Made by a program: the position numbers and the translations under genes
Assembly: GCA_963845755.1 (NCBI GenBank)
Contig: CAWJTV010000034.1
Span: 576,001 to 640,000, forward strand
DNA: 64,000 nucleotides
Reading direction: 5' to 3'
DNA from: an uncultured Planctomycetota bacterium
GTDB taxonomy: Bacteria > Planctomycetota > Planctomycetia > Isosphaerales > Isosphaeraceae
Part shown: positions 13,534 through 47,773 of the stretch, one piece after another
Layout of the letters: every line of letters begins with the position of its first letter
Numbering within the stretch: the first letter of the stretch is position 1
Notes under the pieces: model-generated
Seen by the model: the letters and a program-made list of their open reading frames with translations, nothing else
Told to the model about the DNA's origin: nothing
Database searches by the model: none

Positions 13534-16423
13534 TCAATCCGGTACGACCGCGTATTCGCGTCGTCCCTTGCGGACGACGATGCGAGGCGCGAGCACCTCG
13601 CGGGTGCGGCGAAGCAGCCAGTGGCCGCAGGGGACTAACAACGGCCGGACCAGGGTCGCATCGATGAGGATGCCGACCACCAGGGCGAACCCGAGCTGGC
13701 GGAGTGAGCCCAGTGGGCTGAACAGGAACGAGGCAAAGCTGGTGGCCGTGATCAACGCGGCTGAGCTGATCAGGCCGCCGGTCTGCCCGATCGCCCGGAC
13801 GATCCCGCGACGGAGTCCACGCCTCTGGGACTCCTCGTTCAGGCGGGTCATGAGGAAGACGTTGTAATCGACCCCGACGGCGACCAAGAGCACGAACAGG
13901 AAATACGGCACCTTCCAGTCGAGACCTTCCGCACCCAGAATCGTGACGAAGACCAGATGGGTTGTGCCCAGGGCAAAGAGGTACGTCAGCACCATGGTCG
14001 CTACAAGGTTGAAGCACGACAGCGGGTCGCGGAGGGCGACGAGCAGCACCAGGAACACGCCCACCGGGACGATGAACCAGCTCTGAACCTGGTCGGCGCG
14101 GGTCAGGTCGCGGATGTCCGCCGATTCGGCGTTGGCGCCGGCGACTCGCGCGGTGACCTGGATCCCCTCGTATTCACCCAGGAAGTCGTTGAGGCGGCGC
14201 CGGAGGGTCAGGACCTGGTTCATCGCGTCATTGGAGAAGATCCGGTCGGCCTGGGTCAGGTCGATCCGCGCGGTGGCCGTCGGGCGTGATGTAAGCGGCG
14301 AAGCTCTGGAGCAGCTCGGGATGCTCGTGTACGGTCTGGTCGTCGATGAGGAGTCGATCCAGCGCACGGCGGCCGACCGGATCGTTGAGGATCTCGGCGA
14401 CCTCCCGACGGGCGCGGCCGGCGCCCTCGGCGATCTGCGAGGCACCTTCAGCGGCCCGCGTCAATTCGCGCAGCAAGACCTCCTGAGGGCTCTCGATTCT
14501 CGGCGTGACCGCGGGTTTCGGCTTGATCTCACCGGCAAGGATTCCCGCCGCATTGCCCTTCGCCGGCGCAGGATTCGCACCTTCCACCGGAGCGGCCGGC
14601 GTGGGCTTCGAAGCCTTATCGGGTTTCTCCTTCGATCGGAGTATGGCCTGCGGGTTGAGGGCCTCGAAGGCGCGGCTCAGCGCCGGCAGATTCATGGCCG
14701 CCGGCATCCCCTGGCTCAATTGCATGACGGCCGATGCCTGGTTCAAGCCCGAGGCCAGCGTTTCGCCGGTGGCCTGGGCGCGGGCGACCGACGGGTCGGA
14801 CCGCGGCGTCGTGCCATCAAGGGGCTTTCCCGTCAGCGGTAGCCCGGTTGCCTCCTCCAGCCAGATGGCGGCTCGCAGCTTGGCCGCACCCTGGGTCAGC
14901 CCCTTGCCGAGTTGCTCGGCCCCCGCCTGGAGCAGGCGGAATCCGGCATTCACCTCACCGAGTCGAGAGCTCAGCCGGGCGCGCGAGAACGGCTGCGGGC
15001 TCCCCAACGGTTGCGTCGCGGAGCGCACCTCGTCGAGCCGGCGGTGGTGCGACAGCAACCGACTGATGTCGTCGATCAGCGCCAGGCCCTCCGAGTTGCG
15101 AAAATCGGCGTTCGACTCGAGCACGACCGTCAAGGGGGCCAGCATCCCCGGCTCGAACTTGGAGGCGACCAGCCGGAAATCCTCCACGGACTGCGTGCGT
15201 TTCGGCAGCTCGGTCATCAGGTCCTGGATAAACCCGGTCCGCAGCGCCAGCAGGGACAGCGGGAGCATCGCGAGGATCGTGAACAGCCAGCTCCGCAACG
15301 GCCGCGCCATCGCCGCGGCGCCGAGCCGATCCCAGAGTTCCGTCGAGGTGCCCGCCAGGCCGTCGAAGGCCCGCGGGTGAATCCGCGCCAGCAGGACCAG
15401 GAGCGCCGGCGTCAGGCTCAGCGTTGCCAGGAGCGCCAGGCCCAGCCCCATGGCCACGCTCGGCCCCGTGCTCGAGAACAGCTTGAACTTGGTCGTGCCC
15501 ATAAGGAGCAGGCCGATCATGATGGTCCCGGCGCTCGTGACCAGCGGCATGAACGATCGCGACAGCGTCGCCCGCATCGAGCCGACCGGGTTATTCCGGT
15601 TGAGATGCTCGGCGAACCGCCAGGAGAGGAACAGGCAGAAGTCGGTCCCGGTCCCGAATAGGATCGCGATCAGGAACAGCTCGACCAGCGACGAGACCTC
15701 CCAGCCGCCCCGGATCGTCCAGGCGAGCAATCCTCGCGCGATGATCACGCTGAGACCGATCGTCACCAGCGGCACGAGCGCCAGCCAGAACGATCGGTAG
15801 ACCAGCAGCAGGACGATCATCAGTAAGACGACCGTCGCCACGGCGGCCCGGTCGAGGGACGTCTTGACGTTGGCCATGTAGTCGCGCCCGATCACGGCGT
15901 CGCCCGTCCATCGGATCTCGAGCCCGGAGGGGACGCCGAGTTCCGCGGCGTGTGCCTGGTGCTTCATCCATGCGACCGCTTCGTGCGACGCCGGCGCGAC
16001 GAACGACGAGGCCAGCGATACGGCCACCAACATCAGCGTGCCATCGTGGCTGACCAGTCGCTGGGCGATCTCGGGGATCGCGCCCGGCCCGATCACGCGG
16101 AGGACTTCCCCCGGGCGGCCATCCGCCTCGAATCGCCGGGATAACCTCAGGGCGAACTGCTTGTCGGCATCCGTCAGCCCGGCCGGCCGGTGCAGCACCG
16201 CCACGACCAACGACTCATACGCCTGGTCGGGCCAGCATTGACGGACCAGCTCGGCCGCCCGGCGGCTCTCCGCGCCCGACGCCAGCATCCGCGCCTGACC
16301 CTCGGCCGCCAGACGTGTCAGATCGGGGGAGAACCAGGCAACGACCCCGGCCGCGATCAACCAGGCCGCGACGATCCAACCAGGCTTGCGGCAAACGATC
16401 GTCCCAATGACGTCCAGCGACAT
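13534..16423 (-). CDS. MMPL family RND-type transporter (frameshift near 14265)
   Basis: Two MMPL TM modules: ILFGTGTDFCLFL and VAVGVDYNVFLMTR..TGGLISSAALI..GILIDATLVRPLLVP. Confidence 0.88.
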
Positions 16424-16696
16424 CTCTCGACCACTCCGGGAGACCTGGGTCGCCTCGCCCCGGTTTGCCGTCTCCGGTTTTCCGTGTCCAGAATCGGAAG
16501 GTCTACTTGCTGAACGCGGAACACCGCGGCGAAGCGACGGTTTTCGCAATTTCCAGGGTTCAGGATCATCCGGGCAATCCGGAGATGTTCCGAGCAAGAG
16601 CTTGTCCAATATACAAACTTTTCATGCCCGAGATCAAGCAGAGTTGGTGTGCAGGCAGGCGGCACCGGTGCGTAAAAAATTCCGTTTGCACACATT

Positions 16697-17056: not shown

Positions 17057-18429
17057 CTACGGCGCACCCGCGCCGCGATCGGAGCGGGAGGCTTCGGCCG
17101 CCGCCCGGTCCGCGCACCACGGATGATAATCATTGCAAAAATCGATCCGTTCGCCGATGCTCGGATGGCTGGCCCGGAAGACCTTGTAGAACAGGCCGGG
17201 GCGGGGGTTGCCCAGGTTCTCCGCTTGCATCTTGGCGAACGCCTGGGCGGAGGAATGGTTGGCCCGGGTTAGATCGAGGGAGTACTTGTCGGCCTCGTGC
17301 TCCTGGTGCCGACTGTAGGCCAGGGCGACCGGGCTCAAGATCAGTGACGCCACTTCGATCAGCATGAGGACCAGGGGCACCGAGGCGATGTCCGAGAGCC
17401 GATCGAAGCCAAGCCGTCGGGAGTACCGCGCGATCAGCCAGCTTCCCGCACGGTACACGAAATACAACCCGGCGAGAACCACCAGAGAGCCGAGCAGGAT
17501 CGACCGGACGACGTGGCCCAGCACATAGTGACCCATCTCGTGACCCATGACCGCGAGCACCTCGGGCTCGTCGAATTTGTTGAGCATCGTATCCCACAGC
17601 ACGATCCGTTTTGTGCCGAGGACACCCGTCACGTAGGCGTTGACGGCGTTGGTATCGACGCTCTTCTCGACCTCGAACACCCGGCTGCCGTTGATCCCCC
17701 GCGCTCGGCCAGCGCCAGGATCGACCGCTCCAGCGCCTGGTTCTTCATCGGCCCGAACTTGTTGAAAAGGGGATCGATCCAGATCGGCTCCACCATCATC
17801 GTCGCGAACAAGAATGGCACCGCGAGCAGACCGGTGTAGAGCCACCACCGCCGAGGGCTGCGCGCGATGAGCAGGTAGGGCACCCAGGAAAACGCGAACC
17901 CGACCGCCATCATCACGGCCAGCCCGATCACCTTGTCTCCGAACCATTTGCCCAGGGTCTGGTTCGACAGGCCGTAGGCATGCAGGCGCAGATACCCCTG
18001 ATAGAAAGACAGTGGCAGATTGACCAGGAAGACAACCGCCAGATAGAGAAGCACATAGAGGCCGACGCTGAGGAACCAGTTGCCTCCCAGGCGCTGCGCC
18101 AGGCTTCGCAGTCGCGCCGAGGCTCCCGAGAAGGCCAGGGTCCCGGTCAGAAGGATCGCCCAGACCACGTTGAAGACCCATAGCCAGTTACTCGTCCGAT
18201 AAAACTCCATCGCCTTCGCGCTGGGTTCGGGTACCGGGACGGGCTGCAGCTCGTCCGGCCTCGTCGGCGCGGAAACCCTCGCGGCGCCCGGCGATCCCGG
18301 GCTCTCGCGGTCGGACGACTCGGTTTGCCCGAGGCTCGGACAAGCCACGAAGACAAGTAGCGTACCGGCAAGGACGAATGCTTTTTGGAATCGGTTCATC
18401 AGTCTTGGGAAGATTGCGCGATTCTTCAT
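17057..18429 (-). CDS. Ste24/CAAX-protease-like M48 metallopeptidase (frameshift near 17700)
   Basis: N-part: TM helices, YGLSNQT, IDPLFNKF. C-part: NAYVTG..KRIVLWDTML..AVMGHEMGHY..SRHQEHEAD..SHPSIGERI. Confidence 0.85.
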
Positions 18430-18483
18430 CGTGATAGGGGATCCGGACTCTCGAATCCGGAATCGTCGCCCCACTCCATCCCC

Positions 18484-19917
18484 TTAGACAATCCGATGCG
18501 TCGGCCGCTCGCCTTCGTCGGGCTCGGGCTCCGACACGACCTCGAGGGGCGGCTTGTAGTAGAAGAAGGCGACCGCTAGCGCCAGGCCGAAGACCGCCGT
18601 GAGTCCCCAGCCCAGGTAAGCCATGTACTGGGTGCGGACGAGCTGAGTCTGGAGCTCCAGCGTGGCCTTGCCCAGATCGGACTCGCTCAAGGGCGCGAGC
18701 TGGTCGAGCCGATGCTGCCGCCGATCGTTCGATTCCTGGAGGCTGGCGATCTGCTCGCGGAGCTTGGGTGCCTCCTTCGCCTCGGACTCGTTTTTTTCGA
18801 GGTCCTTCTTCGCCGATGCGAGCTGGCCGTCGAGATCGATCAGACGCTTCTCGAGGTCCCTGGCCTGGCCGCCCAGCCGCTCGGTGATCGACCGCTGGAG
18901 CGTGACCTGTCGCTGGGCCTCGTCGCGTTCTCGGGCCGTCTTGTTGTAGCGATCGAGGAACTCTTCCGGCTTGTCGCTACCAACCTTCTGGACCAACGTA
19001 TCCATCGCCAGCCGCTGGTTTTCGCCGAGGTCCTGGACTGCGCGAGCCAGGGCCAGGAAGGACTCGTTCTGGTCCTGGATCCGCGTCTGGAGCTGGTAGA
19101 GCCACATGGCCAGGGCCACGGCCAGCACGCCCAGGAACGTGCCGAGCATGCCGAAGACCGCGGCGATCTGGACCTTCTCAGCCGGTGAGGTCACGGGAAA
19201 ATGTGCAGGTCGGGTGAGCATCTTGAGGAGCTCCGCCTCGAGGCGGGGTGAGATCATGCCACCCCCGCCGCCTTCGGGATTTGGTAGTTTTTCCAGGTCG
19301 TTGACCAGTCGCGCCAGGGCGATCCGCTCGCCGCGGTCGGCCGTCAGGAAATAGCCGCCGACCTGAACCAAGCCGCCGTCGCGCCACTGGAAGAACCCGC
19401 GCGACTGGTTGATCGGGTCGACCACGTAGGCCACCTGGAGCGGCTGGGCGAAAAAATTCTGGTGGATGAACAGGTCGTGGTGCGAGAGGAAGATGCCGAA
19501 GCTCGGGTGGGTGTGATACCAGCCGACGATATCGCAATCCGGGTGGAGCCGGTCGCGCTCGCGGGTGATCTCCTCCCAGGAATCGTGCGTATAAGTGAAG
19601 CTCGCCTGGGTGTTGGCGTAATGCTTGGCCTCGAGCGACTGGGTGACCCAGACGAACGGCAGACCCGTGGCCGAGTCGAGGCACTCCTTGCCCAGCAGGA
19701 TTCCGCCGAGCTCGACGGACGTATCGCTGAGTGCGTGGCGTTCGATGGCGTCGGCGGTCCGCCGGTCGAGGAAAATCGGCAGGTCGATCGGGCCCGGGAC
19801 CTCGTAGGCCAGGCATGTGATTTTCCGGTCCCGGTCGGGGCGTTGCCGGCGCTCCGGCTCGCGGACCTTCATCTCATCGAAGACGATGTCATCCCCGCTC
19901 AACGGCTGAGTCCCCAT
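18484..19917 (-). CDS. JAB/MPN+ (Mov34) metalloprotease, putative Ubl protease, with TM-coiled coil-TM C-terminal half
   Basis: VELGGILLG and IVGWYHTHPSFGIFLSHHD form the complete E..HxHx7SxxD motif; VAYVVDP; two hydrophobic helices flank a heptad-rich region. Confidence 0.9.
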   Translation of the reverse strand: MGTQPLSGDDIVFDEMKVREPERRQRPDRDRKITCLAYEVPGPIDLPIFLDRRTADAIERHALSDTSVELGGILLGKECLDSATGLPFVWVTQSLEAKHYANTQASFTYTHDSWEEITRERDRLHPDCDIVGWYHTHPSFGIFLSHHDLFIHQNFFAQPLQVAYVVDPINQSRGFFQWRDGGLVQVGGYFLTADRGERIALARLVNDLEKLPNPEGGGGGMISPRLEAELLKMLTRPAHFPVTSPAEKVQIAAVFGMLGTFLGVLAVALAMWLYQLQTRIQDQNESFLALARAVQDLGENQRLAMDTLVQKVGSDKPEEFLDRYNKTARERDEAQRQVTLQRSITERLGGQARDLEKRLIDLDGQLASAKKDLEKNESEAKEAPKLREQIASLQESNDRRQHRLDQLAPLSESDLGKATLELQTQLVRTQYMAYLGWGLTAVFGLALAVAFFYYKPPLEVVSEPEPDEGERPTHRIV

Positions 19918-21169
19918 GCCCGGTCCGATTCCCAACACCCCGGTCGCCGGCCAGAAGGAAGAACCCGGAGCTGGCTGGGCCGTCAACGCGCACGATATCG
20001 TAAGGCGGGATGCCGACGCGGGAAAGCGGTTCCTCCGCCAGGCGCGAGGAATCCTCCACCGTGCTGGCGAACTCCGGGAGGGCCGGCTTGCCACAGCTCG
20101 CGCACACGGCCTCGCTGGCGCGGACCTTGACCCGGGGCCTCATCACCCCACCACGCCAGGCGCACCGCGGACACTCGATCGCCACCACCAGCTCGCGGTC
20201 GAGGACCAGGTGCAGCGGACCGTCCAGGTGCTCCCCGGCCGCCTTCAGCAGTTCCGACACCGATGACTCATGTCCCAGCGCCAGCTCGACCGGCTCCGGA
20301 TAAGTCTCGTGGCTCAGGCAATCGTCGCGTCGCGGCAAGCGGGTGGAATAGAACTGGTTCGCCACGCCGTTGAAGACCAGGGCGCTGCCCGCCGCCACGG
20401 GGAGCCCGTGAAGCAGCTTCAACGCCTCCTGAACCTGGAGCGCGGCCATCATCGACGCGATCGTGGGCGCCGTCGGCACCTTGCCTCCCACGATCTCCTC
20501 GCGGCGAAGCAACGGACAGTTATAGCGAAGGTTCAGGAGTTGATAGTCGCGCTCCGTCATGGCGCATTCATAGCAGGCCGAATCGGGCGGGACGAAGACC
20601 TTGACGACCCCCTGGATCTCCTGGATGCCTGCGTCGATCCAGGGCGTACTCACCTTCCAGCACTGCCGGTTCACCCACAGCCGAGCTTCCCGGTTGTCCA
20701 GGCAGCCGATGACCAGGTCGACCTCCGCGAACAGGCCCAGGCCCACGTCGGTGATCACGTCGCCGTGAATCGGAATCAGCGTGATCTCGGGATTCAGCTC
20801 GCGCGTCCGCCGGGCGGCCACCTCCGCCTTGGACTGGCCGCCGTCCTCCGACCGGAACAAGACCGACCGCGACAGATTCGACGGCTCGACTTCATCCAGG
20901 TCGATCACGAAGATCGTACCCAGGCCCACCAGCGCCAGGTTCTTCAGGACCTCGTTGCCCAGGGCACCCGCGCCGACGACCAGCACCCGCGCATCACGCA
21001 GTCGCTCTTGCCGCCACCACGAGATCAATCGCAACCGGTTGTAGCGATCCAGGTCGTCGATGACCAGGGATTCCGGATCGGAATTCTTGCGATCGATGAG
21101 AACCTCCGGCGCGGTTGGCCGATCGGGCTCATTCGGCCCGTCGCGAAGCGTCTGAGGTGGTTCATCCAT
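19889..21169 (-). CDS. E1-like Ubl-activating enzyme (ThiF/UBA family) with catalytic Cys and C-terminal Zn-binding region
   Basis: VLVVGAGALGNE, DLDEVEPSNLSR, SKAEVAA, CLDNREAR, ACYEC, candidate catalytic RYNCPLL, then CPRC...CASC. Confidence 0.9.
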   Translation of the reverse strand: MDEPPQTLRDGPNEPDRPTAPEVLIDRKNSDPESLVIDDLDRYNRLRLISWWRQERLRDARVLVVGAGALGNEVLKNLALVGLGTIFVIDLDEVEPSNLSRSVLFRSEDGGQSKAEVAARRTRELNPEITLIPIHGDVITDVGLGLFAEVDLVIGCLDNREARLWVNRQCWKVSTPWIDAGIQEIQGVVKVFVPPDSACYECAMTERDYQLLNLRYNCPLLRREEIVGGKVPTAPTIASMMAALQVQEALKLLHGLPVAAGSALVFNGVANQFYSTRLPRRDDCLSHETYPEPVELALGHESSVSELLKAAGEHLDGPLHLVLDRELVVAIECPRCAWRGGVMRPRVKVRASEAVCASCGKPALPEFASTVEDSSRLAEEPLSRVGIPPYDIVRVDGPASSGFFLLAGDRGVGNRTGHGDSAVERG

Positions 21170-21188
21170 CGTTGCGATCCGCTTCCGC

Positions 21189-21248
21189 GTAGGGTGCGTG
21201 AAACCCACCAAGAAGTGGCCCGATCGGGGTGTGTTTTACCCACCCTAT
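21189..21248. repeat. GTAG-type REP doublet (hairpin) between the E2 and E1 genes
   Basis: GTAGGGTGCGTGAAACCCACC ... GGTGTGTTTTACCCACCCTAT form an imperfect inverted pair. Confidence 0.6.
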
Positions 21249-21295
21249 CAAGGGCCGGACGTCGTTCTCGGACCGTTCCTGCGCCGTGTTGGAAC

Positions 21296-22180
21296 TCAAT
21301 CGATAAAGACGATTTCGTCGCTCGGCGGTCGCGTCGCCTGGGGCGGTGGCTCCGGCTGCGACGCGGCGGCGGTCTCCACGATCAAGACTTCGTCCTCACG
21401 TCCGACATCACCACGAGACGGAGCGGAGGCGGCCTCGGCGGTCACCAGGGCTTGTAACTCGGGATTTGAGGGGAGGATCCTGTTGAGGAGGTCTTCGGCT
21501 TCCTCGCGACGACGCGTTGACGCCGGCTCATCGTTGGTGCCAAAGACCTTGCCGTATCGCGCGACGAACTTGCGTACCCGCTCGACCGGCCTGTTCGGTT
21601 CGGCGGCGGCCCGGGACGTCGTGGCCCCGGACGATCCGTTGCCTCGGGCCGAGGGTGCATCCGTCTTCCCGCCTGACGACTCTCCCAATCGCCCCAGCGC
21701 CGCCCGAAGATCCCGGAGTGAGCGTTGATCGGTCGGGAACAGGATCGCCGTCTGGTTGGCGACCCAAAGCGCGGCATCGCGGTTATACGGGCTCCGGATG
21801 TCGTAATTGTGGTAGCGCAGCATGTCCCAGAGCATGATGCACAGCTCATCGAGCTGGATACTGGGCACCCAGTGCGTTCCGTAGCCCCCCAGGCAAACCA
21901 TGCCGATTTCCGAGATATTCGGATGGTAGATTGGGGTCAGCCAGCGGAGCTCGGGCATCGTCCGGGGATAGGAGGAGCCCAACTTGACCTCAACATGGTG
22001 CTTCTCCAGGGACTTGATCTTGCCGTGGTCGCGCCATAACCCTCGACCCTGGAAAAGGATCCGATAATATTGCGGCGGTTCTCCCTGGGTGGTGAAGCGG
22101 AAGACCGAGCTCTCCGAGCGGAGCCGCTCCAGCGCCGCGAGGTCATTGCGGAGCCGTCGCATGCGAGGGGATTCGTACAT
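21296..22180 (-). CDS. E2 ubiquitin-conjugating (UBC) enzyme with disordered C-terminal tail
   Basis: RRLRNDL N-helix, YPRTMP, TPIYHPNI..GMVCL..W.PS..L: the canonical HPN motif and catalytic Cys of the UBC fold. Confidence 0.92.
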   Translation of the reverse strand: MYESPRMRRLRNDLAALERLRSESSVFRFTTQGEPPQYYRILFQGRGLWRDHGKIKSLEKHHVEVKLGSSYPRTMPELRWLTPIYHPNISEIGMVCLGGYGTHWVPSIQLDELCIMLWDMLRYHNYDIRSPYNRDAALWVANQTAILFPTDQRSLRDLRAALGRLGESSGGKTDAPSARGNGSSGATTSRAAAEPNRPVERVRKFVARYGKVFGTNDEPASTRRREEAEDLLNRILPSNPELQALVTAEAASAPSRGDVGREDEVLIVETAAASQPEPPPQATRPPSDEIVFID

Positions 22181-22319
22181 GATCGTGCGGCGCCCTGGAA
22201 AGGAGCGAGGGCCTATTGGTGCAAATGGTCCGGAGCTGCCGAGCGGAATGGTTCGTGATCGCGCAACGCCACGGTCGAGAAACCTCGCCCGGGCGCCGCG
22301 ATCTCCGTGAACCGCCCCC

Positions 22320-22619
22320 TCAAATCGAGCCGGCCACAACCTCGGGATAAACGATCAGATGGTCGCCGTTCTGGATCCCGCCCTCCACCAGTGTCCAGCT
22401 CTCGAGCAATCGACGGCCCCCTTCTTTGTGGTCCAGGGCGTAGCTCATCGGCTGTCCGTCGGGACTGGTCGCGGGTAGATTCATCTTGGTGATGATGTTC
22501 GGGATGATCCGGCTTACAGGCACGCTGAAGGCGATGACCGCCTTGACCGATTTGGCTCCAGTCTGATCCAGGAAGGTGACCTGGATACCACTGGGATCGG
22601 CATTTCCGCCGTATGACAT
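22320..22619 (-). CDS. Ubiquitin-like beta-grasp protein (YukD/EsaB-like) ending ...EVVAG-SI
   Basis: 99 aa; TLVEGGIQNGDHLIVYP resembles ubiquitin TLSDYNIQKESTLHLV; Gly is two residues from the C-terminus; strong AGGAGG RBS near 22630-22635; first gene of the E2-E1-JAB run. Confidence 0.85.
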   Translation of the reverse strand: MSYGGNADPSGIQVTFLDQTGAKSVKAVIAFSVPVSRIIPNIITKMNLPATSPDGQPMSYALDHKEGGRRLLESWTLVEGGIQNGDHLIVYPEVVAGSI

Positions 22620-23008: not shown

Positions 23009-23188
23009 TCAGGTGACCGTTCGGAACAGGGTCATGCTCAGCACCCCGATGACCGCGAAGACCACCAGGAACACGAAGAACAACACCTTGGCGATATCCT
23101 CAAACCCGCTAGCCAGGCCACCGAACCCGAGCACAGCCGCGATGCCGGCGAACACGAGGAAGATGAGGGCCCACTTGAGCAACGACAT
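23009..23188 (-). CDS. DUF1328 (UPF0391/YtjA-like) small membrane protein
   Basis: Manual translation, 59 aa: [48 protein letters not shown]...; GGAGG RBS. Confidence 0.88.
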
Positions 23189-23482: not shown

Positions 23483-23777
23483 TCACCGAGCGACTTGGCC
23501 ACGGAGAATGAGAATCTCCGATCTTCCGCCGAACCGAGCCGGGTCGGCAAGCGGGGCACGGCCGTGATCCCGGCTGCCCTCGGGCGACGCGACAACCTTC
23601 CGGACCCTGACCTGTGGACCGGGACTTCCTCGACGCCAACATCTTGCGATCGGACGCCTGGCGGTCGGGTGCAGCCCTCCAACGGCTCTGGCGCCTGGAA
23701 GGCGTGGACGACCGAGGTGGGCGTGTTCACGCCTCACACGCCCCGGCGTCGATCACCGGCTCCTCGTCGATTCCGAA

Positions 23778-24221
23778 TTAGCGGGTCCCAGCCGCCGTGT
23801 TCGCGGCGTTCCGTGTTGGGGCCGCATAGACCGCGGGATAGCCGAAACCCATCGGCGGAGGGCCGTAAGGATTGGCGTAGTAGGGACAAAGATCTTCCTT
23901 CCCGAGGACGTCGGAGCACCAGTTCCGCAGGGAGAGCTGTCTGAGGACATAGCCATGGGGATGATGATGGCCCATCCCATGGCCGCGCGTATAGGGATAG
24001 CCCAACCCGAGATCGTAAGAGTCAAGCCCGGAACCCCCATGCCCCGGAACGAGATAAGCGGCACCGCCCGTAGGCGTGCCGTAAGCGCCGTAGACGGCAC
24101 CGCTGTCCTGTGCTCTGGCCGAAGATCCCGCGAGGACATAGAGCCCCAATCCCAGGGCGATCGCCCTCGAAGGCAATCGACCAACGATCCGCGCCAGCGA
24201 AATCATGACTATTGTCCTCAC
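23778..24221 (-). CDS. Hypothetical secreted Gly/Tyr/His-rich protein
   Basis: Signal-peptide-like ALGLGLYVLAGSSARA followed by a low-complexity body. Confidence 0.45.
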   Translation of the reverse strand: MRTIVMISLARIVGRLPSRAIALGLGLYVLAGSSARAQDSGAVYGAYGTPTGGAAYLVPGHGGSGLDSYDLGLGYPYTRGHGMGHHHPHGYVLRQLSLRNWCSDVLGKEDLCPYYANPYGPPPMGFGYPAVYAAPTRNAANTAAGTR

Positions 24222-26811: not shown

Positions 26812-27339
26812 GTGGCGAAACGAGATGCGGTGGCACGGAAGCGGAGGACGAGGGAGCACATCATCGCGTCCATCAGCCGCAATTACGTGGAGAGGTTTAT
26901 TCTTGCAAAGGGCCATACTTCGGAGCGTCGGGTCAACGACTATGGTATCGACCTTAACGTGGGAACTTTCGATGAGGATGGATACCCCGAAGGTGGGTTA
27001 GTACTGATCCAGCTCAAGGCTACCGACCAGCTCGTAAGGTGGAAACGCGACGAGTGTGTTTGGGTCAACATCGAGGTGGGGCATTATTTGGGGTGGATTG
27101 ATGAGCCGATGCCGGTCTTCCTGATCCTCTACGATGCCCAACAAGAAAGCGCGTATTGGGTCCACATCCAGGATTACTTCGCGGCGGATCCTTCACAGAG
27201 ACCGAAGCGAGGCGCCAAGACACTCAGGATGTACATCCCGCTGGCCAACGAGTTCACGGGCGATACTGTTGATTACATGAGGGCCAAGAAAGCTGAGATC
27301 CTGGCCAAGGATCGACGAAGGAGGAGACGCCGTGGTTAA
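26812..27339 (+). CDS. DUF4365 PD-(D/E)xK-like protein, copy 1
   Basis: RTREHII..NDYGID..IQLKAT..PVFLILYDA..AYW. Confidence 0.8.
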   Translation: MAKRDAVARKRRTREHIIASISRNYVERFILAKGHTSERRVNDYGIDLNVGTFDEDGYPEGGLVLIQLKATDQLVRWKRDECVWVNIEVGHYLGWIDEPMPVFLILYDAQQESAYWVHIQDYFAADPSQRPKRGAKTLRMYIPLANEFTGDTVDYMRAKKAEILAKDRRRRRRRG

Positions 27340-27754
27340 GAACGTTACCTATGGTCAGCTCCGGAAGGTCTTGTTGTCCCTCGGTTGCGAACCGGTTCCC
27401 TCGAAGGAGAATCACTTCGTTTTCGATCACCCGAGGAGTAATCTTCTCATCATTCTCCGACGGGGTACCGACGACCAACTCGTGCGGCCCATGGACTTGT
27501 CGAGTGTTCGGAGTCAGCTCGTAGGTCATGGTCTGATCAAGGACGATGAAGAGGCGTTTGATTCACTTTTCCTGATCCGGAAAGGCGACCGCCTGATCTG
27601 GACCGACCCGAAGACCGGGAAGGAAGCGAAGGTCACGGCAGCGGCCGGAGAAAGCGATGGGTTAGTGGTCGTCAAGGAGAATGGTCGGCTGGTGCCATGT
27701 CCGGTCGATCAGGTGAAGCGGGTCAATCGCGCTGCGACGGCCAGCAGGAAGTGA
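27332..27754 (+). CDS. HicA-like domain plus small C-terminal beta-barrel domain, copy 1
   Basis: TYGQLRKVLLSLG...ENHFVFDHP fits the HicA pattern with His retained; overlaps the upstream gene by 8 bp. Confidence 0.55.
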   Translation: MVKNVTYGQLRKVLLSLGCEPVPSKENHFVFDHPRSNLLIILRRGTDDQLVRPMDLSSVRSQLVGHGLIKDDEEAFDSLFLIRKGDRLIWTDPKTGKEAKVTAAAGESDGLVVVKENGRLVPCPVDQVKRVNRAATASRK

Positions 27755-27804
27755 CAGGTTGGACGATCCGAAACTCGTGCCGGCAAAGGGATTGCGGAGG
27801 CAAT

Positions 27805-28332
27805 ATGGCGACGCCCGATGCGATGGACCGCATGCCGGAACGAACCCGAGAGCACGTCATCGCCGCCATGGGTTTCATCCATGTTCTGAAAGCATTCATC
27901 GACAAGGTGCATATAGGTGATCGACCCCGTGAGGACTACGGCTACGATCTGATCGCCACGACCTTCGACGAGAGCGGATACCAGGAGGACGGCGAAATCC
28001 GGGTCCAGATCAAGGCTACCGATATACTTGAGAAGTACCGACATAAGGGTTTCCTGGCGTGCGAGATCGAACGCAAGCATTACAACTTGTGGATGAATAC
28101 GGATATGCCGGTCTTTCTCATCCTGTATGACGCTCAGGAAAAGAGGGCCTATTGGCGATACGTGCAGCCGTATTTCGTCGCGGGATCGCGGCGAAGGCCG
28201 AAGGCAGGCACCAAGACAGTCACGGTCCGCATCCCTATGACCCATGAGTTCTCTGAGGACACAGTTGATTATATGCGGGCCAAGAAGGCTGCAATCCTGG
28301 CCCAACAGGGAAAGGTGATTCACCATGATTGA
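27805..28332 (+). CDS. DUF4365 PD-(D/E)xK-like protein, copy 2
   Basis: RTREHVI..EDYGYD..VQIKAT..PVFLILYDA..AYW; GGAGG before ATG at 27805. Confidence 0.8.
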   Translation: MATPDAMDRMPERTREHVIAAMGFIHVLKAFIDKVHIGDRPREDYGYDLIATTFDESGYQEDGEIRVQIKATDILEKYRHKGFLACEIERKHYNLWMNTDMPVFLILYDAQEKRAYWRYVQPYFVAGSRRRPKAGTKTVTVRIPMTHEFSEDTVDYMRAKKAAILAQQGKVIHHD

Positions 28333-28744
28333 GAAGATCACCTATGCAAAATTCCGCGAAGTGCTGTCGTCCCTGGGTTATGCCCCTGAAGAGTTCGGAG
28401 GCAATAGTGTCGTCTTCCGCAATCCCAAACACCGTTTAAGAGTCTTCCTACCGAAGCTCTCCGATAGGCAATTCGTGCCGCCTATCGAGTTGATGAGCGC
28501 CCGCAACAGTCTGATTGGAAACGGCGTCGTTCGCGATGAATACGGATTCGACTCGCTCTTCCTGATCCGCAAAGGCGACCGGTTGCTCTGGACCGACCCG
28601 GAGACCGGGAAGGAAGCGAAGGTCACGGCAGCGGCCGGGGAGAGCGATGGGTTAGTAGTCGTCAAGCAGAACGGCACGTTGTTGCCGTGTCCGGTCGATC
28701 AGGTGAAGCGGGTCAAGCGGGCCGCGACGGCCACCAGGAAATAG
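28325..28744 (+). CDS. HicA-like domain plus C-terminal beta-barrel domain, copy 2
   Basis: TYAKFREVLSSLGY..GNSVVFRNP (His absent); C-terminal half is nearly identical to copy 1. Confidence 0.55.
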   Translation: MIEKITYAKFREVLSSLGYAPEEFGGNSVVFRNPKHRLRVFLPKLSDRQFVPPIELMSARNSLIGNGVVRDEYGFDSLFLIRKGDRLLWTDPETGKEAKVTAAAGESDGLVVVKQNGTLLPCPVDQVKRVKRAATATRK

Positions 28745-45186: not shown

Positions 45187-46020
45187 ATGGAACTGGTCGT
45201 CCTCGGTCTGATCGTCCTGCTGCTGTACCTGTTCATCCGGCTGCTGACATCGTTCAGCGCCTGGATGAGTGGGGCGCGGTATCGGGCCTACCGTCATCTC
45301 GCCGTGCAACATCACGGCCGGTACGAGAGCCGGGGGCTGTCGGACCCACCCACCGTCAGCTTTAACCACAACGGGTCAACGATCCGGGTGGGCCTGGCGC
45401 CGACGGTGGCCGGTCAGCCGTCCCAGGTCCCTCGGACTCGCGTCGTTGCGCGATTCGGCCGCGGCATCCCGTTCCGGCTCGAGCTGGCTCCTGTCGCCCG
45501 CCCGGCCCCGCCTCAGGCGCCCCGGGGAACCCGGTTGGTCAAGCTCGGCGACGCGGCGTTCGACCGCGCCTTCGTCGCCCAGGCCAACGACCTGGAAATG
45601 GCCCGCGACTTCCTCGGCACTCGGGTGCGAGGCTCCGTCGGGAACTTGCAGCGAATGGTCCATCCCGGCGGGATGCTGGTTTCGATCAACCCCGAGCGGA
45701 TGCTCGTCCAGATCGACCGCAACCTCGGTCAGAGCGTTGAGGCGCTGGGCGCAGCGGTCAAGGAAGCCCTGGTCATTCACGATGGGCTGCTCGATGGCGT
45801 GTTGCGACGCATGAACCAGGGGATCGCGATCGTCGACCAGCCGGACGCCTGGGTCGAGGACACCGGCCCTCCCATCTGCAAGGTCTGCGGCGAGCCGATC
45901 CAGGCCTGCGCCGTCATCGTCTGTGCCTCTTGCAATACGCCTCATCACCGCGATTGCTGGGAATACGTCGGCGCCTGCTCGATCTACGGCTGCAACGGGA
46001 AAGTCGGTGTGACGGAGTAG
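45187..46020 (+). CDS. Membrane-anchored protein with C-terminal prokaryotic RING finger (Prok-RING_1-like)
   Basis: N-terminal TM MELVVLGLIVLLLYLF; C-terminal CKVC-x11-CASCNTPHHRDCW-x5-CSIYGC. Confidence 0.8.
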   Translation: MELVVLGLIVLLLYLFIRLLTSFSAWMSGARYRAYRHLAVQHHGRYESRGLSDPPTVSFNHNGSTIRVGLAPTVAGQPSQVPRTRVVARFGRGIPFRLELAPVARPAPPQAPRGTRLVKLGDAAFDRAFVAQANDLEMARDFLGTRVRGSVGNLQRMVHPGGMLVSINPERMLVQIDRNLGQSVEALGAAVKEALVIHDGLLDGVLRRMNQGIAIVDQPDAWVEDTGPPICKVCGEPIQACAVIVCASCNTPHHRDCWEYVGACSIYGCNGKVGVTE

Positions 46021-46825: not shown

Positions 46826-47773
46826 ATGTTTTCACCACTGCGGGGCGGAATCCGATTCCCCCTGACGGCCGTTGGCTTGGCCTTTGTTATCTGGGTCCCG
46901 TCCGGTTCGCTGGCCATGGCCCAAGGAGGAGGGGCCGGTGGCGCCGGTGGGGGAAGTGCCGGTGGCGGAGGGATCGGCGGCGGCCAGGCGGCCGGTGGTA
47001 TGGGTGGCATGGGTCACATGGGTGCCTTTGGTATGAGCGGTGCCAGTGCAGGCAATGTCGGTGGCTGGGGTGGTACGGGTGGCACGAACAACATGGGCGG
47101 CATCGGCAACGTGGCGGGCACAAGCGGCCTGAGCGGTTACGGTTACGGCTACGCCAATGGCGGTCCGGGCTATGGCAATCCGGGCTTGTCACCCGGCTAT
47201 CCGGGTGGTGGCGCCTACGGCTCGGGATACGGTGGTTACGGTTACGGCTCTCCCTATGGCGGCGGTGCTGCGATGGGTTATGGCTATCCGAATGCAGGCG
47301 GCGTCGGGCGGGCCTGGGGCGGCTGTGGCTCCCCGTACTATAGTGGCGCTCCGATGGGCTATGTCTATCCGTATTATGGTGGCTATGGGATGGGCTACGG
47401 CTATCCCAACACGACGGTGGCTTACACCGCGCCCACGGCGGGTTTCGGCTATTCATCGGCCTACGTGTCTCCGGCCACGGGAGCCACCAACGCGGTAGCC
47501 CGAGGCCATTATCTCGGAATCGACGAGGAGCCGGTGATCGACACCGGGGGCGTGCGTAGCATCAAGGTCGCCAAGGTCTATCCCGGCACCGCAGCGGAGC
47601 AGGCGGGTCTTCATGTCGGCGACGTGCTGCACTCGATCAATGGTTACCTTACTCAACAGCGCGGAAACCTGGCCTGGATCATTGCCAATGCGGCTCCCGA
47701 CAAGATCCTCAAGATGAACGTGCACACGGTGCGTGATGGCAAGGAGTACACCGTCACGGCCCGGGTTCCATGA
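46826..47773 (+). CDS. Secreted Gly/Tyr-rich protein with C-terminal PDZ domain
   Basis: Signal peptide, long G/Y/M low-complexity tract, then YLGI..VYPGTAAEQAGLHVGDVLHSING. Confidence 0.78.
   Translation: MFSPLRGGIRFPLTAVGLAFVIWVPSGSLAMAQGGGAGGAGGGSAGGGGIGGGQAAGGMGGMGHMGAFGMSGASAGNVGGWGGTGGTNNMGGIGNVAGTSGLSGYGYGYANGGPGYGNPGLSPGYPGGGAYGSGYGGYGYGSPYGGGAAMGYGYPNAGGVGRAWGGCGSPYYSGAPMGYVYPYYGGYGMGYGYPNTTVAYTAPTAGFGYSSAYVSPATGATNAVARGHYLGIDEEPVIDTGGVRSIKVAKVYPGTAAEQAGLHVGDVLHSINGYLTQQRGNLAWIIANAAPDKILKMNVHTVRDGKEYTVTARVP

Follow-up and report, generated by a model that had tools for sequence, protein, structure and literature searches.

The genes considered here raise the question of whether a ubiquitin-like conjugation set in an uncultured planctomycete of the family Isosphaeraceae forms a complete relay, and what such a relay would do for the cell. 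The set lies in a 64,000-nucleotide stretch of DNA (contig CAWJTV010000034.1 of assembly GCA_963845755.1, positions 576,001 to 640,000; hereafter the window), and an earlier note, made from the letters alone, had described it as a complete operon of a ubiquitin-like protein (Ubl), a conjugating enzyme (E2), an activating enzyme (E1) and a JAB peptidase. The Ubl-E1-E2-JAB set is indeed full, but the note overlooked a fifth member, a membrane-anchored RING gene at 45187-46020 that is probably, judging by its sequence, the ligase (E3) of the pathway. We consider it very probable that conjugation happens at all, and hold with moderate confidence that the system carries out reversible, membrane-localised Ubl tagging of inner-membrane proteins as a standing cellular role.

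The four operon genes all lie open on the minus strand: Ubl (22320-22619, 99 residues, YukD-like beta-grasp; Pfam YukD PF08817, E 9.5e-13), E2 (21296-22180, 294 residues; Pfam UQ_con, E 3.9e-13; motifs YHPNI and MVCL), E1 (19889-21169, 426 residues; Pfam ThiF, E 2.2e-58; GAGALG, RYNCPLL and two Zn sites) and the JAB/JAMM metallopeptidase (18484-19917, 477 residues; PF01398, E 6.5e-9, and PF14464, E 1.1e-6). The description first given of them, as four intact and co-oriented genes for a 99-residue beta-grasp protein, a UBC protein with YHPNI..VCL, an E1 with an adenylation motif, a candidate catalytic Cys in RYNCPLL and Zn sites, and a JAB with its full metal motif, is borne out throughout, as are the calls of a eukaryote-like E2, of a membrane-bound JAB and of an overlap between E1 and JAB. 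The last of these measures 29 bp, from the first JAB ATG to the E1 stop, and the sequence supports a JAB start in or near it because a conserved motif sits just after that ATG; the remaining intergenic gaps are 139 and 126 bp. The third-position GC of the four genes (0.73-0.86) is as expected for real genes, and the ratio of non-synonymous to synonymous substitution rates (dN/dS) against those relatives for which it could be computed is low for Ubl (0.005-0.078, six pairs), E2 (0.06-0.19, six) and E1 (0.13-0.22, five); codon-position GC and low dN/dS together mark all of them as real. A scan for promoters and terminators gave nothing exceeding shuffled sequences. At least 507 related stretches were found, of which 80 were kept, and among the matches listed the closest named relatives, all Isosphaeraceae, are Aquisphaera, Singulisphaera, Tundrisphaera, Paludisphaera and Tautonia sociabilis, whose Ubl is 88-93% identical.

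The individual proteins look equipped for cysteine-based conjugation chemistry. Ubl ends in YPEVVAG-SI, and Gly97 is predicted to be its last residue once mature; across the family the end reads PE[VI][VI]AG followed by a variable tail, the Gly being present in 79 of 79 closed frames and the final residue in 25 of them, and absent from one distant homologue (L091). This pattern of a fixed Gly and a variable tail would mark Gly97 as the mature end and give JAB a trimming job. Ubl also carries conserved basic residues (K23, K26, R37 and K45) and weakly matches profiles of ubiquitin and of the PDB entries 6fj7/2mqj/6fnn, named "Ubiquitin-like protein" (E 0.01-0.02). E2 consists of a UBC core of about 155 residues, with the His-Pro-Asn (HPN) motif at 86-88 and the cysteine at position 96, and a variable low-complexity tail; its best PDB match is yeast Ubc13 (E 5.5e-11), and H86, P87, N88 and C96 are invariant across 36 aligned sequences out of 40 collected homologues, two frameshifted or partial sequences and the distant, Cys-less L097 and L099 having been omitted. 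The E2-like proteins of L097, L099 and L100, none of which entered the alignment, lack the catalytic Cys, and no other Ubl-system gene was detected with them in 19.5 kb; those of L097 and L099 end in a Zn ribbon and adjoin an MMPL gene. JAB has an N-terminal catalytic domain, a transmembrane (TM) helix, a segment of about 165 residues that is likely, from its sequence, a coiled coil, and a second TM helix. Its metal motif E-HxH-S-D (E69, H135, H137, S145, D148) is kept in all in-frame homologues, and hydrophobic helices like its own two (about 251-269 and 434-452) were found as a pair by TM scan in 37 of 46 family JAB frames.

E1 has one ThiF/MoeB-type adenylation domain, preceded by 40 residues; its Cys loop holds about 30 residues, and its C-terminal part resembles a ubiquitin-fold domain (UFD). 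One Zn site is formed by C199/C202/C284/H287, and an optional Zn ribbon (C333/336/356/359) sits in the C-terminal domain; none of C199, C202, Cys218, C284 and H287 varies among 26 sequences, the most distant of them at 40% identity (frameshifted rows excluded), and the ribbon cysteines are missing in three homologues. The E1 model has a mean predicted local distance difference test score (pLDDT) of 89, and its residues 1-369 align with UBA3 (2nvu_B, Z 30.2, root mean square deviation (rmsd) 8.1, 305 aligned) and with UBA1 (9mc4_A, Z 28.4, rmsd 6.1); the alignment with MoeB covers residues 1-248 only (1jw9, Z 32.6). On this whole-model alignment through residue 369, at an rmsd of 6-8, E1 is predicted to carry a C-terminal UFD-like domain.

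The fifth gene was found by searching the genome with the Prok-RING_1 profile, which gave three matches, one of them in the window at 45874-45981. It lies in the gene at 45187-46020 on the plus strand (277 residues; PF14446, E 9e-9, above cut-off), whose product has an N-terminal TM anchor (residues 3-21), a TtfA/CCDC47-like domain (about 28-212) and a finger with eight conserved ligands (C231, C234, C246, C249, H254, C257, C264 and C269). The gene stands about 23 kb from the operon, moved by an apparent inversion that ends near 23.2 kb on one side and near 46.5 kb on the other and is either biological or an error of the assembly; by DNA comparison, five relative loci retain the RING gene and the operon in joined order. 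Among Isosphaeraceae loci with sufficient flank, RING lies co-oriented within 2.5 kb upstream of Ubl in 29 of 48, and it lies downstream of Ubl in 12 of 14 loci of other families, mostly Pirellulaceae, so the linkage exists in two different gene orders. It is also retained where unlinked: the 55 Isosphaeraceae genomes with a RING and Ubl pair comprise 30 with the two within 2.5 kb, 7 with them distant on the same contig and 18 with them on different contigs. This retention when unlinked, together with their joint loss in one event (see below), argues that RING is a functional partner of the Ubl system. The RING family has 1075 representatives at E 1e-10, and cluster look-ups of 10 distant homologues yielded no informative names.

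Two side observations concern this gene. The window segment inverted relative to the five relative loci is 23233-46490, and near its ends a 116-bp inverted match (23737-23850 and 47440-47554, 75%) lies between two Gly/Tyr-rich, secreted-looking genes. In L179, L180, L181 and L185 the operons are expanded: JAB and E2 are each present twice, one of the JABs being short and soluble, and there are as many as three RING-TtfA-like genes.

What might such a ligase recognise? The model of the RING protein (pLDDT 79 overall, 55-73 in the finger) shows a TM helix, an alpha/beta domain and the finger. Foldseek returned two matches below E 0.001, one to TtfA (5.5e-7) and the other to an SND3-translocon chain. 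In a wide structure search the fold of the middle domain resembled TtfA (Z 14.3, rmsd 3.8, 161 aligned), CCDC47 (Z 12.8, rmsd 7.7) and the SND3-translocon chain (Z 10.5), with the next row at 7.8. TtfA (PDB 6t84) and CCDC47 (PDB 7tut, of which we take chain 4 to be CCDC47, and 7tm3 and 6w6l) share with the RING protein an N-terminal TM anchor and the same cytoplasmic fold, but at an identity of just 6-12%, and the RING protein adds a fused RING-type finger. Residues 2-24 anchor TtfA, a cytoplasm-facing partner of MmpL3 (PMC6593404), and CCDC47 aids the biogenesis of multipass membrane proteins (PMC9816642); the relevant passages of these two papers describe neither as a ligase, and the literature outside subscription journals yielded no paper that links either of them to a RING. 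The presence of this fold on a putative ligase is a concrete hint to its targets.

A further feature shared by the enzymes is a short acidic-hydrophobic motif. After a variable tail of 24-183 residues, E2 ends in [DE][DE]I[VL]F[IL][DE] (21299-21322 on the minus strand here), which fits the sequence pattern of a SUMO-interacting motif (SIM), namely a four-residue hydrophobic core with an acidic flank (PMC12751080, in the part concerned); a true SIM would join the groove of the Ubl as an extra beta-strand, and Ubl does conserve K23, K26, R37 and K45. The terminal motif occurs in 69 of 78 E2 frames, whereas a crude background of 5407 C-termini shows it 7 times, the pattern having been derived from the same tails on which it was scored; the misses include three near-variants and several frames that are apparently frameshifted. 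Looser motifs of a similar kind occur at the N-termini of JAB (60 of 72) and of E1 (65 of 70, possibly for structural reasons). When Ubl was folded together with the 35 C-terminal residues of E2, the score was 0.44 against 0.02 for the best control, with contacts agreeing to at least 86% and a partner pLDDT of at least 51, but the prediction yielded no interface. In calibration the mark for this test was reached by 116 of 157 solved pairs and 2 of 215 mismatched pairs; scores up to 0.60 account for just 18 of those solved pairs and for both of the mismatched ones, so the modelling points only weakly to binding of Ubl by the E2 tail.

To judge whether the system has a standing role we consider its distribution, counted over 60 Isosphaeraceae genomes, each at least 90% complete. 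Ubl and E1 are each present in 54 and RING in 55 of the 60, usually with one copy of this type of system per genome. The five shared misses are the same five genomes of one genus (g16), in which Ubl, RING, JAB and E1 all score 0 of 5 and E1 searches give just matches of ThiF/MoeB length; the sixth genome without Ubl and E1 is an assembly of 600 contigs that has RING. Similarity to the present genome tracks that of rpoB (Spearman 0.80 for E1 and 0.71 for RING; n=47, partial rpoB matches dropped, kin not independent). Outside chromosomes, viral contigs held just three distant giant-virus E2s, annotated phages gave no Ubl match, and 72,556 plasmids yielded one distant E2 (31%, NC_019754.1 40587-41036, Crinalium epipsammum); an origin as a mobile element was rejected on this near-absence of plasmid and phage copies. 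The near-core retention in Isosphaeraceae points to a permanent task at the membrane and not to virus defence alone.

The surroundings were assessed on 68 proteins chosen from 122 called frames of 11 related loci, plus three window genes. Those that could be named are mostly housekeeping (GroEL/ES, EamA, EF-P, PriA, GlnD), and PADLOC found among the 71 proteins only generic kinase, methylase and AAA domains and two DUF4365 proteins, in keeping with the earlier note, which had seen no obvious defence island. That note had also pointed to a membrane-protease context and proposed a housekeeping or envelope-tagging system. Distribution and context do look like housekeeping, the role itself still being inferred. 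An M48 (Ste24/CAAX-type) membrane protease (17057-18474 on the minus strand; PF16491 and PF01435 in different frames) and an MMPL-family transporter (13534-16609 on the minus strand; PF03176, two frames) are conserved neighbours, lying downstream of the operon in 29 of 44 and, within an 8-kb flank, 22 of 44 Isosphaeraceae loci, respectively; as an argument for an envelope role this context is weak, each being found in 0 of 14 loci of other families and both persisting in g16, where an MMPL orthologue of 49-54% occurs in all five genomes without the system. They are therefore neighbours and at most clients, and were not accepted as components of the system, being neither lost with it nor adjacent to it outside Isosphaeraceae; that the MMPL transporter is a client of the TtfA-like domain is speculative. 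Both genes are split by frameshifts here and encode single proteins in relatives (the M48 domains share one protein in L134 and L141), and the frameshifts are probably long-read errors because many related assemblies show similar indels. A small PRK13682-like membrane protein (23009-23188 on the minus strand), shared by the closest relatives, lies directly upstream of Ubl.

The genome also encodes a second, paralogous Ubl set. One part, on contig C36 (C36:264888-269689), comprises Ubl, E1, JAB-TM, TM-FHA and Zn ribbon-TM genes, and the other, on C11 (C11:25842-29419), comprises Zn ribbon-TM, two RING proteins and an E2 with a Zn ribbon; in L104, L105 and L108 the set is one block. The E2s of this second system end in Zn ribbons instead of the SIM-like motif. 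Its Ubl and E1 on C36 share one reading frame, through fusion or a sequencing indel, and are separate in L108; its membrane partners are FHA, Zn-ribbon, RING and trypsin-like proteins.

Taken together, one could envisage the following cycle. The membrane-tethered JAB would trim Ubl after Gly97; E1, probably as a MoeB-like homodimer, would adenylate it and form a thioester at Cys218, and the UFD-like domain would present E2 for transfer to Cys96. With its middle domain the TM-TtfA/CCDC47-like-RING protein would then bind a membrane client, and with its finger E2~Ubl; inner-membrane proteins would in this way be tagged on their cytoplasmic face, and JAB would remove the tag again. The acidic-hydrophobic motifs of E2, E1 and JAB would probably bind Ubl non-covalently, as SIMs bind SUMO. 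A search for proteasome genes in this genome, which is 88% complete, gave a single PF00227 match, HslV, and found neither 20S proteasome genes nor a Pup ligase; since no 20S genes were found, the tag is less likely to deliver membrane proteins to a proteasome than to change their fate, assembly or proteolysis. One could also speculate, tentatively and with more doubt than belief, that Isosphaeraceae possess a housekeeping inner-membrane pathway resembling endoplasmic-reticulum-associated degradation (ERAD), in which a CCDC47/TtfA-fold RING ligase picks multipass clients (MMPL being one candidate), a membrane JAB reverses the tagging, and all enzymes are docked on Ubl by SIMs.

Several points weigh against membrane tagging as a standing role. 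The genus g16 does without the system, and at the level of the phylum E2 is patchy, occurring in 38 of 300 genomes. M48 and MMPL, the membrane neighbours, are neither co-lost with the operon nor its neighbours outside Isosphaeraceae. MoeB likewise has a Cys in the loop that holds Cys218, so this residue alone is no proof of a thioester. The model of the RING protein has low confidence in the finger, which in structure matches ZZ domains (Z 5.2-5.5) as well as, or slightly better than, RING/U-box domains (Z 4.3-4.7), and among PDB sequences no sequence-level link of the protein to TtfA or CCDC47 was found; a shared fold, seen in a model, would in any case be insufficient to show function. Finally, the characterised bacterial E1-E2 pathways in the literature consulted are all antiphage or suggested to be so.

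This last point leads to the main rival, a domesticated antiphage or conflict system retained in most Isosphaeraceae, whose cascade would tag, at the membrane, phage proteins that are entering the cell or being assembled, in the way that Bil tags tail proteins. Bil and CBASS provide precedents, other RING-containing operons have been predicted to be defensive (PMC10557695), and Aravind et al. see such operons as mobile elements akin to restriction-modification systems (PMC3417536, in the part concerned); the gene order Ubl-E2-E1-JAB resembles that of Bil, and the patchy distribution across the phylum would also suit a conflict system. The window even holds, 4 kb from the operon, a tandem duplication of a DUF4365 gene and a small uncharacterised gene (26812-28744, 70% DNA identity between copies), the two DUF4365 genes giving weak PADLOC matches to restriction-endonuclease-like models, but in none of the 10 close relatives compared did the upstream DNA match the pair. 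A defence role is harder to reconcile with presence in 54 of 60 genomes, usually as one copy, with divergence that tracks rpoB, with the very low dN/dS of Ubl, with a RING kept when unlinked, with mostly housekeeping neighbours and with a single distant E2 among all the plasmids, and we regard it as possible but unlikely.

The tie between ZZ and RING matches allows a different objection, that the finger is a peptide-binding ZZ/PHD-like module and not an E2-activating RING, and that the system serves signalling and not quality control, with E2~Ubl modifying its own components, soluble proteins or lipid. The lack of 20S proteasome genes and of a Pup ligase in the 88%-complete genome, with HslV as the PF00227 match, would suit such a role, as would the FHA and Zn-ribbon membrane proteins of the paralogous system and SIM-like motifs acting in scaffolding. 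Pfam nevertheless places the finger in Prok-RING_1, E2 keeps the HPN of RING-type enzymes and has Ubc13 as its best match, and the finger protein is co-inherited with E1 and Ubl; we hold this alternative to be improbable. The nearest matches of the E1 core are to ThiF/MoeB (1zud, E 2e-23; 1jw9, Z 32.6), which are also its best NCBIfam matches, though below cut-off, as would be expected if Ubl were only adenylated and thiocarboxylated, like ThiS and MoaD. A sulfur-carrier pathway of this kind does not account for the linked E2 with its invariant Cys or for the RING protein; no sulfurtransferase was named among the neighbours scanned, and separate, more distant ThiF/MoeB-like genes lie on contigs C33 and C39 and remain in genus g16. 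We reject it as highly improbable.

How, then, does the system relate to those already described? In its make-up it would work as a ubiquitin-type E1-E2-RING-JAMM cascade. Operons of a YukD-like Ubl, E1, E2, JAB and Prok-RING_1 (PF14446) were reportedly predicted by comparative genomics by Burroughs, Iyer and Aravind in 2011, and by its sequence features the locus belongs to this class, as the class is said to be defined; the class itself is accordingly not new. PMC4197634 refers to the 2011 prediction when it treats planctomycete operons, and PMC10557695 does so for rare RING E3s of bacteria. Shared with it are a YukD-like Ubl with a terminal Gly, an HPN-type E2 with Cys, a UFD-like E1, JAB, a membrane RING and a planctomycete host. 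The class is presented as sporadic and mobile in the relevant parts of PMC4197634 and PMC3417536, whereas here it is near-core in Isosphaeraceae, yet patchy across the phylum. In the literature searched, subscription papers lying outside its coverage, neither a TtfA/CCDC47-like domain on the RING, nor a two-TM JAB, nor SIM-like tails were found for the predicted class, and a bench study of it was likewise not found there, the supplementary tables of the Bil and Bub studies also lying outside. What seems to be new here is the near-core status, the TtfA/CCDC47-fold putative ligase and the SIM-like tails.

Like the present system, types I and II Bil have separate Ubl, E2, JAB and E1 genes, a Ubl with a conserved Gly and a variable, trimmed tail, and predicted Cys chemistry (PMC10557695 and 10.1101/2024.11.21.623966, in the parts concerned). 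The E1 of type II Bil is, however, described in PMC10557695 as an inactive and an active adenylation domain (IAD and AAD) with a CYS domain of about 80 residues, and the passages on it give it no UFD, whereas the E1 here lacks the inactive adenylation domain and the 80-residue helical CYS domain and has the UFD-like domain that BilD lacks; a canonical HPN E2, a membrane-bound JAB and a linked RING further set our locus apart. PADLOC gave a weak BilD match (9.5e-8) over the adenylation core only, matched JAB just to generic JAB models and returned no BilA, BilB or BilC match, Ubl and E2 giving nothing at E 0.05. The system is therefore not Bil, since its E1 lacks BilD's extra domains, and the difference from type II Bil that the earlier note had drawn from the single adenylation domain is upheld, there being no large CYS insertion either. 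Bub (10.1101/2024.11.21.623953) likewise has a Ubl, E1, E2 and peptidase, but with fusions, oxyester (non-Cys) chemistry and DUF6527; this assignment was rejected too, the genes here being separate, the cysteines invariant and DUF6527 absent from the Pfam matches of the locus and its neighbours. The Ub/E1/E2/RING/Rpn11 operon of Caldiarchaeum subterraneum is similarly a compact five-part cascade with an HPN E2, a RING and a minimal E1, in contrast to which we see a YukD-like Ubl with a single terminal Gly, a membrane-anchored candidate E3 and JAB, and no 20S genes found (PMC5654768, in the part concerned). YukD of B. subtilis itself is reported not to be conjugated (PMC1779556, in the part concerned).

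In the literature surveyed, bacterial Ubl conjugation has so far been shown in defence systems only, and without a RING E3, and a 2025 review knew of no prokaryotic system sharing the SIM-binding groove (PMC12687455). If the ERAD-like reading were true, bacteria would have their first E1-E2-E3 cascade with a job other than defence, and prokaryotes their first SIM-type interaction. A five-gene, single-copy and highly conserved cascade in the cultured genera Singulisphaera, Aquisphaera, Tautonia and Tundrisphaera makes three questions testable: whether a bacterial E1-E2-E3 relay depends on a RING, whether such a relay may serve membrane housekeeping, and whether SIM-like recognition may be older than eukaryotes.

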